Origin: Myxococcales bacterium
GTDB lineage: Bacteria > Myxococcota > UBA727 > JABDBI01
Direction: 5' to 3'
Assembly: GCA_023898405.1 (NCBI GenBank)
Contig: CP060221.1
Coordinates: 1,719,381-1,783,380, forward strand
Length of the DNA: 64,000 nt
Part shown: positions 8,796-16,007 of the stretch, one piece after another
How the letters are laid out: each line of letters starts with the position of its first letter
How positions within the stretch are numbered: the first letter of the stretch is position 1
Notes under the pieces: model-generated
What the model saw: the letters and a program-made list of their open reading frames with translations, nothing else
Database searches by the model: none
What the model was told of the DNA's origin: nothing
Made by a program: the position numbers and the translations under genes

Positions 8796-9179
8796 TTAGG
8801 ATTTTTCATTTTCTATTTCTGGCAATCTGTTGATGCTATGTCGTTGAAAACATCTATGCAATGATGAACGGCTCAAATGAGGAACAGTCGGCTGCAAGGC
8901 GTAGAGGCAATCATCCAACGGCAACAAAGTATGTCTTCGAAATGCAACGCAAGCTGCTTCCTCCTCTTTGCTTAATACCGTCGAACAAATATTCTTCGGC
9001 CCCATAGGAGCATCAGCAACAAACTTGCGTTTCTTCCATTTAGTAATTGTTTTAATATTGAGATTATAAAGTGTCGCTAGCGTTCCTAGGCTCTCTTTAC
9101 TATGTTGTATTGCTCGACGCACTGCCTGAGTTGTTCTGGCGCATCCGTGAAGTACTTGTCCCGTAAACTGTCCCTCCAT
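8796..9179 (-). pseudogene. IS481-family transposase N-terminal (HTH) fragment, truncated remnant
   Basis: 127-aa ORF resembling the N-terminal HTH region of IS481-type transposases (ARTTQAVRR...TITKWKKR...LSKEEEAACVAFRRH). No DDE core follows; the next gene is the unrelated ACAD. Confidence 0.5.
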
Positions 9180-9833
9180 GATTTGCTTCTATAACACAGT
9201 CCATCACAGTCTGGGACTAAACAATTTTTTTTAAACCCTACCGTGCAGATAATAATAATGGCTGGATTTTTAAGCCAAATAGTACGATTAATAATGGCGA
9301 CAATAATAATAATGTCAGCAGTGGCATAATAATTGAAGAATGCTCTGGTGTGGTTACTGAATAGAATGTAATTAATGCGGATAATAACCGCAGTAATAAT
9401 ATCGATATATCTTCTCAATATTATATTTATAGTGTGGTAGATTTAAGTTTTGTTGTTCCTGGTTTTAACGCAGATAATTCGTCACAGCTGGCAGATGAGA
9501 ATAATATAGATGATCAAAACAAGAGTGAGGGAGTAATAAATAACGCAGAAGAAGATTTTTTGGAAAATAAAAAAGAATCAGAAATGCTCAGAAATAAAGC
9601 TGAAAATAAAAATAACAAAATGTCTGTCAATTTTATTCTAAATTAGCTTTTGCTTAAGCAAAACGGAGGCTATTAACTTTTTTGAACAACGAATTGCTGC
9701 TTTGGCCCAAATGTTAGGGAGGGCCAGGTGTGGCAAATCTCTCAAAAAATTGGTGGCTTTAAAAGTAATTTTTTTCCTTTAGATAGACTATCCGCTTGTT
9801 TAAATAGGGGCTACTGCAAAAACCCCTTTATTC

Positions 9834-10307
9834 TCATTCGTAACAATATTCCGCAACGTTTTTCATGCGAGATACCAAACTTTCTCCACCAAAGTCATAG
9901 GTTCCTTCATTTATTCTGTTAATCAGTTGTTGCTTCTGGTAACGCATTTCAATTCCTATGCTTGTGAAATATTCCATTTTTTCTTTGCAGTCTGCGATGA
10001 GCTGTTCATAATCAATGCCTTGATCTTTAAAATATTTTTCAACATCGGAATCCATGGCGGAGGATTGTTTACCCGACAACTTACCTTTGATATAAGAGGC
10101 CGCTTTTTTTCCAGCATCTTTAATCGAGCTAAAAAGATTTTTAATTGCACTTAAGAAATTATCACTTGCAACGTCAATATTTAGGTCAAATTCAGTTAAT
10201 TCAGTTGGGCTTGCAATGGAAGATACTTTTGTTTTTGAAGATAGCGGATATGATAAAAATATTATTGAAATTAGTAGTATTATTTTAGTATACATCGTTC
10301 GCTCCAT
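9834..10307 (-). CDS. Hypothetical secreted protein
   Basis: 157-aa ORF with an N-terminal signal-peptide-like segment (MYTKIILLISIIFLSYPLSS). No recognisable domain. Confidence 0.45.
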   Translation of the reverse strand: MERTMYTKIILLISIIFLSYPLSSKTKVSSIASPTELTEFDLNIDVASDNFLSAIKNLFSSIKDAGKKAASYIKGKLSGKQSSAMDSDVEKYFKDQGIDYEQLIADCKEKMEYFTSIGIEMRYQKQQLINRINEGTYDFGGESLVSRMKNVAEYCYE

Positions 10308-10495
10308 AGTGTAGTATACTAATAATTAATATATTTAATGAAATTTAGCATGAAATAATGAAGTGTGGAGATCAGTTCTAGTCTCGTGAGAAAAGCCTTG
10401 AGCCTTGTTTTTCAATAGGTCCAAAAAACAGTATAGGTAGATGTTTTCAAAAAAGCGTTTTGTGCTATCACTAATGCGTATTACAAGGTGACTAA

Positions 10496-11413
10496 ATGAA
10501 AAATATAATAATTTTAACATGTTCGATCTGGTTTGCAACAAGTATTGCGTATGCAACCCAGATTAATTTTAAATTTATTGGTTTTGAACAATTTAGCAAA
10601 AATCCAGCACATAAGATTCTGGAAGTTAATTGTTCGAATAATACAACTACAACCATTGGAGATTTAAAAGAACAATTTTTTTATAGTTATAACATATCTC
10701 CTAGTGAAACCATTATCCTTATTGCCCACGAGAAATTAGAGGATTCAGCCCTTGTTTCAAGTGTAAACATAGCTATGCAAGGTGAAGTAATGGTTGTTAG
10801 GGATACAAGTGGCGGTATAAATTGTTTTAGTGAACACTATTCCAAACTTAAATCCGCTATTGAGGCTAATAATATAATCTACGCTGAAAATCTCTCACAT
10901 TCGATCGAACGTTCTCCAAATTTTTCAGACACTGAAAAGCGAATTGCAAAGAAATTGACTGAAAATCTATTGAAAATTAATAATAATTCAAACAATGAAT
11001 CGCCTGATGATGAATTAAGTAGGCTTTTGAATTTTATAGAGAAAAAAAATGTCATCAATTTAGATCCTGCTTTGCAAAAAATCTACAATAATTTTAAGCT
11101 CTGTATCGAGTATAGAAACGTTCAATCAGCTAAAACCATTATTAATTCAGCTAAAAATAATAAGTCCTTTTCCATTGAACAAAAAATAGAAATTGAAAGT
11201 TGGATGAATGGCAGCATTATTGAAAATAATTCAAACTTCCAGCCGCTCACTGAAAAAAATAAAACACAAATATTGTTAGAAAAATTTAATGATTTGAAAG
11301 AGAATAAAAGCAATGTTGATGAAGCAATCGATATTGCCTTACAGCTTTTAGATCAAGATGACTTAAACCTTATGGAAATGGAGAAGATTCGGGATTGGAT
11401 TAATTCAATCTAA
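10496..11413 (+). CDS. Hypothetical secreted protein
   Basis: 305-aa ORF with a signal-peptide-like N-terminus (MKNIIILTCSIWFATSIAYA), Asn/Ser-rich, no recognisable domain. Confidence 0.5.
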   Translation: MKNIIILTCSIWFATSIAYATQINFKFIGFEQFSKNPAHKILEVNCSNNTTTTIGDLKEQFFYSYNISPSETIILIAHEKLEDSALVSSVNIAMQGEVMVVRDTSGGINCFSEHYSKLKSAIEANNIIYAENLSHSIERSPNFSDTEKRIAKKLTENLLKINNNSNNESPDDELSRLLNFIEKKNVINLDPALQKIYNNFKLCIEYRNVQSAKTIINSAKNNKSFSIEQKIEIESWMNGSIIENNSNFQPLTEKNKTQILLEKFNDLKENKSNVDEAIDIALQLLDQDDLNLMEMEKIRDWINSI

Positions 11414-14401: not shown

Positions 14402-14969
14402 TTTTTGTTTATATGAACATAGTTTGGGTCAGCTGACGGCGCCAAATTAAAAAACATTTGCACATCAAAGGCATTATTTTTTACTTGCTGATCATTAATA
14501 TAGCTCTGAATAGCTTCAATTTTTTCCTCTGATTTAGCTTCGCCTTCTAAATGGGTAATCAACAATTCATATTCATTGGACTGTATTTCGTCGACGCCAG
14601 CAATTGAATGATGATCAATTTGATCTACATCACCACACCAAACTCTAACACAGCTAAAAAACAACGATAGAAAGCTTAAAAGCAGAACATTAAAACTCAT
14701 TTTATTTCCTATTTATATCTAATAAATTTCTCCTAGCACAACGCGCAAAATTATCAATAATTTATCTGGGCTCATCACATAAAAAACTGAAAAAATATAA
14801 GTGTAACATAAAAACCGCTTTATGGGTTCTAGAGCCTGCTCAAAACCTAAGCGCAAGGCCAAAAAATATCTTGACTGCCTGCACTGTAATAAAGCTTTCA
14901 CCTATAAAGCCCTCATTACTGTACTACGGCAAGGAGAAAATATAATATGGCCTCGCTTTCATTGTCTTA

Positions 14970-15290
14970 TCAGTTCAAAATTAAATTTTTAAGAACAAGA
15001 GTCTTCTCGCAAAAATAGATTACTTCTGAGTCCAAATGCACAAGCATGCGGTCGTGTTCAATTGCTTCAAAAATAAGCGCGTCCACGCATTGCGTCAGGC
15101 TTTCAACAGCTTTAAATATTATCTCGCCATCAACACTATAATTATAAAAAATTTCACCTGGAATTTCACCATTTACCAGCTGTTCGTCACCTTTCTCTTT
15201 TACTATTTTTAGTGGCTCAAGTGATTGAGCAAAAGCCAAATGAAAGGAAAATAATAATACTAATAAATATATCTTCTTCATGAATGCCAC
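14970..15290 (-). CDS. Hypothetical small secreted protein
   Basis: 106-aa ORF; internal Met gives signal peptide MKKIYLLVLLFSFHLAFAQS. No recognisable domain. Confidence 0.4.
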   Translation of the reverse strand: MAFMKKIYLLVLLFSFHLAFAQSLEPLKIVKEKGDEQLVNGEIPGEIFYNYSVDGEIIFKAVESLTQCVDALIFEAIEHDRMLVHLDSEVIYFCEKTLVLKNLILN

Positions 15291-15562
15291 CTAAATAGTT
15301 GTCAGTGTGCATGTTGTTTTCGTGATTAGAAATAATTAGTTGTTTATTGTTTTATGGGGAATATTGTTATTATTATTTTCATTGTTTTTATGTCTTTAAT
15401 TTACTGGTTAATTGTGGTGGTTCGCAACGCAGCGAACACCTAAGCTCGACTTTGGCCGAAATTGAAACGAATCGGTAGCTTCAAAAGAACAGAAGATTGG
15501 AATAAGCTGATCTACCCTCAAGAGCTGCCGAGAAATGAAAAGAGCACATCATAAAAGATTTC

Positions 15563-16007
15563 ATGAACAATTTTGCCGAATGCCTTAGTTCTCCTAGTCT
15601 GAGTCGGCTGAGTGAACTTCTTGCTGCAAGAATTATCACCATCGAAAAAACTACAGTCACGAACTTATCAAGGGTATTCGGCTTCGATCCCTACAACAGT
15701 CCCTGGCATCACCTATTTTCACGCTATCGAATCTCGCTTTGGGCATTATCATTTGTTCTTATAAAGTTGATTCGAAAGACTTTTGTTGCAGATGGACAAG
15801 CACGTTTTTGTTGTCGATGACACAAGGTGCTTGCATAACGGCAAAATTGTTTTTGGCAAGGCAAAGCATCGTGATGCCGCACGCTCATCTCATGCTGTTA
15901 CCACTTTGCTATGGGGACATACTCAAAATGCTCTTGAGCATAAGATTTTATCTTTGGAAGCCTCACCTATTTCAAAACAGTTTCTAAAGCTCATGATTGG
16001 TAATTAA
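15563..16007 (+). pseudogene. Possible degraded DDE transposase remnant (IS701/IS4-like), frameshifted
   Basis: Two overlapping short ORFs in different frames (15563..15820, 15783..16007); the second contains HVFVVDDTRCLHNGKIVFGKAKH resembling the first catalytic Asp region of IS701/IS4-type transposases. Weak. Confidence 0.3.

Follow-up and report, generated by a model that had tools for sequence, protein, structure and literature searches.

Our data indicate that the interval between a dehydrogenase gene and a transporter gene in the chromosome of a 'Myxococcales bacterium', whose genome is IS-rich, low in GC and 2.5 Mb in size, is very probably a hot spot of IS-mediated plasticity. In such a hot spot, lineage-specific genes for Sec-exported proteins would accumulate and turn over, and IS elements of at least four families would cut into the region. 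The window that we analyzed, a 64,000-nucleotide stretch of this genome, spans the entire interval.

A strain-variable island between conserved genes

On its left, the interval is bounded by a gene encoding a 544-aa AidB-like acyl-CoA dehydrogenase (7077..8711, minus strand; Pfam AidB_N and Acyl-CoA_dh), and on its right by a gene encoding a 407-aa TLC/NTT-type transporter (17532..18755, plus strand; Pfam TLC, E=7e-19). Both flanks are conserved in two related MAGs, L001 and L002, with protein identities of 77% and 71%, respectively, for the dehydrogenase, and 81% and 76% for the transporter. Both relatives lack the entire stretch 8712..15983, and synteny breaks exactly at its borders: in L001 the gap between the dehydrogenase gene and a patatin gene is 167 bp, and in L002 the dehydrogenase gene directly adjoins the transporter gene, with a spacer of ~450 bp. 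No protein or ORF of this stretch is encoded in any of 80 related loci, those of L001 and L002 included. The missing 7.27 kb, which we term the island proper, is a real strain-variable island; as a genome plasticity zone it is of an ordinary type. The product of the adjoining patatin gene (15984..17207, minus strand; Pfam Patatin, E=7e-23) is a patatin-like phospholipase bearing a signal of the lipoprotein type (…IVSSC). L001 has this gene (53% identity) and L002 does not; it is an older variable gene of the same hot spot.

The island's GC content is 35.5% versus 39.4% for the rest of the window, the minimum among all 7.27-kb spans. Four IS-derived segments lie within it, one active (IS1595) and three dead (IS481, IS5 and IS701), whereas we found two, IS1 and IS5, in the remaining 56.7 kb; by our own Poisson estimate, ~0.7 IS segments would be expected in the island (P ~0.005). 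In line with an IS-driven hot spot, the ends of IS elements are also where short-read contigs of three other assemblies stop. An earlier sequence-only reading had described an IS-dense accessory island here, and this description holds: the region is non-syntenic in relatives, each listed element was found at, or a few bases from, its assigned position, and in NCBIfam and Pfam profile searches all four IS calls match the families it named. A 70-aa low-complexity ORF within the island (9434..9646, plus strand) is a doubtful gene: a short-read MAG lists it among its gene calls, and its codon score is gene-like, but it has no family match and its length is within chance.

Near-identical strains differ at this site. 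A contig from another metagenome (L084) matches the window at 100% identity over 18103-14853 and continues past 14853 into unrelated DNA that carries a Tiki/TraB/ChaN-like gene, and a contig from an independent assembly (L085) ends at 14846; together they mark the breakpoint of a strain-level alternative arrangement at 14828..14853. These data bear on a different history, in which the island is ancestral, was deleted in both relatives, and survives here as a decaying remnant, not as something acquired. Its orphan genes show host-like codon usage, protein searches found no donor or homologue, and the outgroup comparison comprises just two related loci, so that whether the island was gained here or lost there is judged by parsimony. 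However, such a history needs clean independent losses in L001 (leaving the 167-bp spacer) and L002 (leaving ~450 bp), and sits poorly with the lowest GC in the window and with a near-identical strain that has different content at the site, which points to ongoing replacement and not only to loss. We consider it improbable. The sequence-only reading had called the region "horizontally acquired or rapidly decaying": the lack of synteny and the low GC agree with it, but because no donor or homologue exists, acquisition is inseparable from local origin or divergence.

We also considered whether the region could be a degraded integrative element, such as a prophage, an ICE or an integrase-borne genomic island, with the orphan genes as its cargo. 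Such islands typically combine low GC, a patchy distribution and orphan genes, all present here, although codon usage is not deviant. Every other expected component is missing. There is no tRNA gene anywhere in the window, and we found no direct repeats flanking the island and, in the ORFs and in most spacers translated in six frames, no match to recombinase, phage or conjugation families. A six-frame X-masked scan of the spacers, covering all but the minus frames of 15260-16040, revealed no further IS remnants. Without a tRNA gene, a recombinase-type match or flanking direct repeats, the region does not qualify as a classical integrative element, and we regard a degraded one as highly unlikely; an IS-mediated hot spot remains our preferred reading.

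An active IS1595 element, a split ankyrin gene and three IS remnants

The sequence-only reading had called an intact IS1595 element of 716 bp at 13686..14401 (plus strand), and its anatomy confirms this. The transposase is full length (NCBIfam model positions 2-213 of 215, 160 bits; cutoff 75) and of the DDE, ISXO2/IS1595 type (Pfam DDE_Tnp_IS1595, E=1e-32). The element ends in perfect 19-bp terminal inverted repeats (13686-13704 and 14383-14401) and is flanked by a perfect, AT-rich 8-bp target duplication, TTTTTGTT, at 13678-13685 and 14402-14409. Target duplications of 8 bp are usual in the IS1595 family. The identical 217-aa transposase is annotated on 16 contigs overall; within the 2.5-Mb source contig it has at least four protein accessions. 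We conclude that the insertion is recent and that the element is currently active and multi-copy. In its ISXO2-like DDE transposase, 19-bp inverted repeats and 8-bp duplication it resembles the IS1595 family (ISEc75-like elements and their relatives), but its transposase is only 63-66% identical to those of the nearest annotated, plasmid-borne copies, so that it would represent a new IS in this family.

The IS1595 element lies within an ankyrin gene. The 3′ part of this gene (12039..13685, minus strand; Pfam Ank_2) is annotated as a 529-aa protein, USN50171.1, and the 5′ part (14402..14700, minus strand), which encodes an N-terminus with a predicted signal peptide, is annotated as a separate 102-aa protein. 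Excising 13686-14409 in silico yields one uninterrupted 645-codon frame running from 14700 to 12039: the 3′ frame is open upstream of its annotated start up to the IS boundary, and the ORF at 14392-14700 fuses with it in frame once IS1595 is removed. This fusion shows that the "ankyrin gene" of the sequence-only reading, which did not list the ORF at 14392-14700, is one gene for a 645-aa protein with a predicted signal peptide, split by a recent insertion. Its ankyrin repeats were correctly recognized and score above threshold (Pfam Ank_2, E=9e-18, 65 bits; Ank, 52 bits); what does not stand is the intact gene. A search of 5.8 billion proteins recovered the ankyrin protein in its interrupted form only, with no relatives beyond generic ankyrin-repeat matches and none for its ~290-residue C-terminal part. 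An exact 32-nt pattern for the empty IS1595 site had no matches in JGI metagenome contigs, and a protein-based scan for an intact ankyrin allele gave no relatives.

This locus could in principle reflect an assembly artefact, in which unrelated parts of the source MAG were stitched together at the repeat ends of IS5 and IS1595. Bases 11835-13683, comprising the ankyrin 3′ part and the left IS1595 junction, are bounded by these two repeat families and occur in the source assembly only, with no independent contig across them, and the other sample continues differently at 14853. However, the gene halves beside IS1595 join in one perfect frame and the 8-bp duplication matches on both sides, making a chimeric join very unlikely. 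Bases 1-11834 and 13684-18103, moreover, are found at 100% identity in independent assemblies, and the right-hand IS1595 junction is reproduced at 100% identity in L085. We therefore give an artefact a very slim chance and read the locus as a genuine, recent IS1595 insertion.

The ankyrin repeats and the mobile-element-rich, variable setting are reminiscent of the Legionella Ank/Leg effectors and the Wolbachia ANK genes (PMC3563639). The protein does not match any Legionella equivalog: models for AnkX, AnkG, AnkY and AnkH gave 24-44 bits versus cutoffs of 500-1400 (for example, 43 bits versus 1400), and these weak matches stem from the repeats only. It further differs from the Legionella and Wolbachia proteins in carrying a predicted Sec-type signal peptide rather than a type IV secretion signal, in being encoded by a disrupted gene, and in its C-terminal ~290 residues without relatives.

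The other three IS segments are each truncated. At 8796..9179 (minus strand), called an IS481-type fragment from sequence, we found the N-terminal 127 aa of an IS481-family transposase (NCBIfam IS481, E=5e-17). The match covers model positions 2-117 of 284, the N-terminal DNA-binding part only, at 62 bits versus a cutoff of 224. The fragment's stop codon lies merely 85 bp from the start of the dehydrogenase gene, so the catalytic part is gone, probably by deletion; with neither a complete transposase nor both element ends, this piece is a remnant and not an element.

The proposed IS5-family 3′ remnant (11500..11800) likewise matches its family, and we place it at 11523..11803 (plus strand). 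The ORF at 11514-11777 (plus strand) matches IS5_3 at model positions 211-257 of 258 (E=4e-11) as well as Pfam DDE_Tnp_1_2, and bases 11523-11804 share 82% identity with a complete IS5-family copy at 28633-29537, which has both ends and a TAA duplication. The remnant has one IS terminus with its terminal repeat, ending at 11800 and followed by a TAA target at 11801-11803, and lacks a complete transposase and a second inverted-repeat end. In a short-read MAG contig (L081), a different flank begins just past 11804. The IS5 transposase has at least 10 accessions in the same 2,515,055-bp contig.

The segment at 15563..16007, read from sequence as possibly IS701-like, does contain an N-terminal IS701-family remnant (15563..15924, plus strand; NCBIfam IS701) that is frameshifted near 15790-15820. 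Its two overlapping frames correspond to model positions 11-83 and 87-127 of 412, and scored together they cover 6-127 and reach E=1.3e-10, far under the full-length cutoff for a complete transposase.

Putatively exported orphan proteins and a probable ubiquitin-like domain

Three small orphan genes lie between the IS segments. The first encodes a protein with a hydrophobic N-terminus, from a 157-aa ORF annotated as 153 aa (9834..10307, minus strand); its codon score of 0.19 is within the host range and frame-specific, and its sole match among 5.8 billion proteins is itself. The second encodes a 305-aa protein (10496..11413, plus strand) with a predicted signal peptide, MKNIIILTCSIWFATSIAYA, cleaved before TQ. 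The third, a 106-aa ORF annotated as 103 aa (14970..15290, minus strand; codon score 0.21), has a predicted signal peptide, MKKIYLLVLLFSFHLAFA, cleaved before QS, and its sole database match is again itself. As the sequence-only reading had noted, all three have signal-like N-terminal segments and no recognizable domains, in that none matches a Pfam or NCBIfam family at normal thresholds. Their hydrophobic 12-residue maxima are 2.2-2.8, whereas two cytoplasmic controls reach 1.0-1.5; by eye, cleavage motifs of the AxA type can be made out. Both features point to export of these proteins.

Codon usage, which the sequence-only reading had put forward as a check, gives no sign that the orphan genes are foreign. 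They are indistinguishable in this respect from host genes, and we rejected codon usage as a sign of foreign origin; the likeness argues against a recent foreign origin of the cargo. The suggestion that the orphans are candidate host-interaction factors is plausible.

The 305-aa protein probably carries a ubiquitin-like domain ending in GG (residues 22-107, end ...RDTSGG; 10559..10816, plus strand), as judged from PDB and Pfam sequence matches. All 32 PDB sequence matches are to ubiquitin, with E ~0.1 against a single ubiquitin. For the isolated domain, the top Pfam family is ubiquitin (PF00240; E=0.025), at 14.8 bits versus a curated cutoff of 25.4. The domain is 29-31% identical to ubiquitin, and its end, ...VVRDTSGG, aligns with ...LVLRLRGG, placing its GG at G75-G76; this di-glycine stands at the domain end and is internal to the protein, with 198 residues after it. 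In a shuffle test, the observed score was not attained in any of 20000 shuffles. When the 305-aa protein was searched exhaustively against 1.84 billion representative proteins, it matched only itself and eukaryotic polyubiquitins; we discounted the polyubiquitin E-values (1e-17, 1e-10), which are sums of several weak repeats of the same match. The sequence-only reading had missed this domain.

We modeled the mature 305-aa protein by single-sequence AlphaFold2 (pLDDT 53), which predicted residues ~110-305 to be helical, and the domain from an alignment that included three ubiquitin rows (pLDDT also 53). Both models show a strand-strand-helix-strand-strand order at low confidence, with pLDDT only 30-47 over the ubiquitin-like domain. 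A Foldseek search of both low-confidence models against the PDB gave no significant match; those to 14-3-3 and other proteins are meaningless (TM <0.35).

A known parallel is BfUbb, a secreted ubiquitin homologue of Bacteroides fragilis that is 63% identical to human ubiquitin and consists of a stand-alone domain without a terminal GG (PMC3352274). As in BfUbb, a predicted signal peptide precedes a probable ubiquitin-type domain in the 305-aa protein, which is likewise encoded in a low-GC, strain-variable region (PMC3352274, PMC5705921); unlike BfUbb, its domain is ~30% identical to ubiquitin and sub-threshold in Pfam, keeps the GG, and is followed by a predicted helical extension of ~200 residues. 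A more far-reaching reading, which we hold to be possible but rather doubtful, is that this orphan is an exported, eukaryote-derived ubiquitin-like protein with a di-glycine, fused to a helical domain, and that it identifies this small-genome 'Myxococcales' lineage as parasitic on, or symbiotic with, eukaryotic cells. The exported ankyrin protein, two patatins, a Fic protein and the TLC-type transporter nearby would be joined to it as further marks. If this were true, the 305-aa protein could be cut after its GG by host deubiquitinases, like ubiquitin fusion proteins, or could instead interfere with host ubiquitin enzymes.

Proposed history and significance

We infer the following order of events, and deletion as the cause of the truncations. 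The ancestral state would be that of L002, with the dehydrogenase gene beside the transporter gene. The patatin lipoprotein gene, common to L001, would have arrived next. In this lineage, orphan cargo and the IS481, IS5 and IS701 elements may then have entered between the dehydrogenase and patatin genes, and later deletions may have left these three elements with one end each. Most recently, the active, multi-copy IS1595 would have inserted into the 5′ part of the gene for the 645-aa, putatively exported ankyrin protein, duplicating 8 bp and splitting the gene. Near-identical strains now differ past 14853.

IS-rich variable intervals are well known, and as a genome feature the island is routine. 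Comparable IS-mediated plasticity zones occur in IS-rich, host-restricted or recently specialized bacteria such as Shigella (PMC7373316) and anglerfish symbionts (PMC6020299). The likeness extends to several IS families crowded in a variable interval, truncated IS copies, a gene freshly interrupted by an active multi-copy IS, differences between strains, and a small IS-rich genome. The taxon to which the present genome is assigned, Myxococcales, is known for genomes that are large and GC-rich, whereas the source contig is 2.5 Mb at ~39% GC.

The value of the island is local: it is an insertion hot spot with base-level borders, at which strains of an uncultured organism already differ, and its annotated 529-aa ankyrin and 102-aa hypothetical proteins are the two parts of a single gene that a currently active IS has inactivated. 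A secreted ubiquitin-like protein, if confirmed, would be a rare case in bacteria. The island adds to the signs that IS elements are in a phase of expansion in this 2.5-Mb, low-GC genome assigned to Myxococcales; in other bacteria, such a phase goes along with a shift toward host dependence.

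An IS-mediated variable island between conserved genes

We sought related loci in a genome scan with the AidB-like acyl-CoA dehydrogenase encoded at 7077-8711 (-), which flanks the island on the left. The scan returned loci from two related MAGs, L001 and L002, with 77% and 71% protein identity to the dehydrogenase, and all remaining matches were at or below 42%. After the two close relatives, Legionella species supply most of the best matches (L003-L080, 35-42% identity), and further ones are from MAGs of Gemmatimonadota and Bdellovibrionota rather than from cultured Myxococcota. 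Genes flanking the island are 53-81% identical across the window, L001 and L002. The distance from the end of the patatin gene (15984-17207, - in the window) to the start of the dehydrogenase gene is 167 bp in L001 versus 7.27 kb in the window; in L002, which lacks the patatin gene, ~450 bp separate the dehydrogenase gene and that of the TLC-type transporter. Synteny with L001 and L002 therefore sets the island borders at 8712 and 15983, essentially matching the 8796-16007 proposed in the sequence-only reading. Across the 80 fetched loci, no island ORF has a relative.

The same synteny shows the patatin lipoprotein gene as a putative older variable gene at this site. In L001 this neighbourhood is variable as well: the gap from patatin to transporter (2020-3387) holds 1.3 kb of unrelated DNA, which includes a 138-aa orphan ORF. 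The island has a GC content of 35.5%, below every other 7.27-kb span of the window. Because we found no tRNA gene, recombinase-type family match or flanking direct repeat for it, the island is not a classical integrative element. It represents an ordinary plasticity hot spot mediated by IS elements.

Insertion sequences, a split ankyrin gene and a strain variant

Family matches bore out all four insertion sequences (IS481, IS5, IS1595 and IS701) called from sequence alone. The IS481 transposase fragment (8796-9179, -) matches model positions 2-117 of 284 (E=5e-17); its ORF stops 85 bp short of the neighbouring gene, so the remnant represents the N-terminal part only. In the IS5 remnant, the ORF at 11514-11777 (+) corresponds to the final 47 positions of an IS5 model and also matches Pfam DDE_Tnp_1_2. 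Bases 11523-11804 are 82% identical to a complete 905-bp IS5-family element elsewhere in the window (28633-29537), whose minus strand encodes a 271-aa transposase and which has inverted-repeat ends and a TAA duplication. Read from these element ends, the remnant terminates at 11800, followed by TAA. At least 10 accessions in the same genome carry an identical or near-identical IS5 transposase. The IS701 remnant spans two overlapping frames that, scored together, match model positions 6-127 of 412 (E=1.3e-10); it is the weakest of the four calls, but real. A six-frame scan of most of the remaining island spacers found no additional IS remnants. Beyond the island, the only two IS-related genes found in the window are the IS5 copy and an IS1-type ORF. 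In the latter, 174 aa long (25809-26333), we recognised domains of the IS1 transposase, namely an InsA zinc ribbon, an HTH and part of DDE_Tnp_IS1. IS1 thereby becomes the window's fifth IS family, here as a probably truncated element.

The intact IS1595 element occupies exactly 13686-14401, encodes a full-length transposase (160 bits versus a cutoff of 75), and has perfect 19-bp inverted repeats bordered on both sides by a perfect 8-bp duplication, TTTTTGTT. We deleted 13686-14409, corresponding to the element and one copy of the duplication, in silico. The deletion joined the ORF at 14392-14700 and the ankyrin ORF into a single frame of 645 codons. What is annotated as a 529-aa "ankyrin repeat protein" and a 102-aa "hypothetical protein" is thus one gene in two halves. 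The rejoined product begins MSFNVLLLSFLSLFF, a signal-like N-terminus, and continues through ankyrin repeats to the C-terminus. The identical IS1595 transposase occurs in at least four copies in the genome; together with the perfect repeats and perfect duplication, these copies point to recent transposition by an active element. An intact ankyrin allele was not found in any collection searched, and the segment 11835-13683, which holds the 3' half of the gene, has the source assembly as its sole support.

A contig from ENA sample ERZ28655569 (scaffold_10611; L084) follows the window at 100% identity between 18103 and 14853. Past 14853 it is unrelated, and in place of the ankyrin gene it encodes a protein of at least 260 aa with weak Tiki/TraB/ChaN-superfamily matches (E ~1e-5) just under the cutoffs. 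This gene (L084 3285-4135) has GEQH and GARH motifs, and the contig end falls inside it. L084 is an alternative strain haplotype in which the ankyrin gene is replaced. A Logan contig (L085) is an exact copy of 13684-14846, ending at an IS1595 terminus on one side and at most 7 bp from the L084 breakpoint on the other, and the short-read MAG contig L081 departs from the window directly after the IS5 terminus. Assembly breaks thus fall where repeats or variants would be expected. With no counterpart in L001 or L002, the lowest GC in the window and a strain variant, the region is supported as the island that had been proposed from sequence.

Orphan exported proteins and a ubiquitin-like domain

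Three orphan proteins are encoded in the island, of 157 aa (9834-10307, -), 305 aa (10496-11413, +) and 106 aa (14970-15290, -). The 157-aa and 106-aa proteins had no match beyond themselves among 5.8 billion proteins, and the 305-aa protein matched only itself and polyubiquitins (1.84 billion representatives, no prefilter). Their codon-usage log-odds of 0.19-0.35 match the 0.17-0.35 of conserved host genes and are strongly frame-specific; IS genes score lower. The longest open frame in shuffled island sequence had a median of 102 codons and a maximum of 171; the 305- and 645-codon frames are thus much longer than chance would give, and that of 157 codons exceeds the 95th percentile. All of the orphan proteins have hydrophobic N-termini. 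We take them to be real genes with predicted exported products, either long resident in the genome or arisen in the lineage.

Residues 22-107 of the 305-aa protein probably adopt a ubiquitin-like fold. In its favour, all 32 matches in a PDB sequence search were ubiquitin, and the top Pfam family for the isolated domain was also ubiquitin (E=0.025). BLASTP and MAFFT alignments give 29-31% identity to ubiquitin over the domain and align ...SGG with its terminal ...RGG. In 20,000 shuffles the observed alignment score was never reached (Gumbel fit P ~1e-5 for a single comparison). Against it, the Pfam score of 14.8 bits is under the curated cutoff of 25.4, and E is only ~0.1 against a single PDB ubiquitin. 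The two AlphaFold2 models, both of low confidence, do have a strand-strand-helix-strand-strand order, and Foldseek found no significant match with them. The nearest published parallel, BfUbb of Bacteroides fragilis, shares a signal sequence and a low-GC variable region with the 305-aa protein (PMC3352274). BfUbb is a stand-alone domain with 63% identity to ubiquitin and no GG (PMC3352274), unlike the more divergent, GG-containing domain here. That the 305-aa protein acts in a eukaryotic host seems unlikely.

Genome setting

At ~39% GC, the window carries polA, uvrC, recR, hslUV, RNase P RNA and other ordinary chromosomal genes. By exact protein matches it belongs to a 2,515,055-bp MAG contig (locus tags H6731_; proteins USN50169-USN50177), and its sequence recurs in assemblies from ENA and Logan and in a short-read MAG, GCA_020430645.1. 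A polyketide synthase gene (>3089 aa; KS/AT/DH/KR domains) extends from ~6070 to position 1 (-) and past the left window end (L081 5808-14803), followed by a fatty-acid hydroxylase gene (6160-7092); a polyketide synthase of such size is unexpected for a 2.5-Mb genome. A ~93-nt palindromic element that could be a MITE-like or REP-like repeat flanks an amino-acid permease gene (36458-37879), with 83% complementary copies at 36346-36438 and 38105-38197, of which the right also folds back on itself. A 231-nt unit is repeated three times in tandem (27470-28162; 100, 95 and 66% identity) within a 520-aa gene with DUF7450 repeats.

At 407 aa the TLC-type transporter (17532-18755), a membrane protein, falls short of its 491-position family model (TLC ATP/ADP transporter, E=7e-19); it is conserved in L001 and L002, with 76-81% identity. 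A Fic-domain protein (290 aa) and a second patatin-like phospholipase (471 aa) are encoded side by side within 43379-45743, and a 633-aa class-3 lipase lies at 55361-57262. A subtilase joins these genes in the surroundings of the island, and lipases and effector-type domains are enriched within this single 64-kb window. Our analysis adds exact island borders, a split ankyrin gene, a strain variant and a ubiquitin-like lead to what had been read from sequence, and a host-associated or predatory lifestyle would fit the surrounding genes together with the IS load of this small genome.
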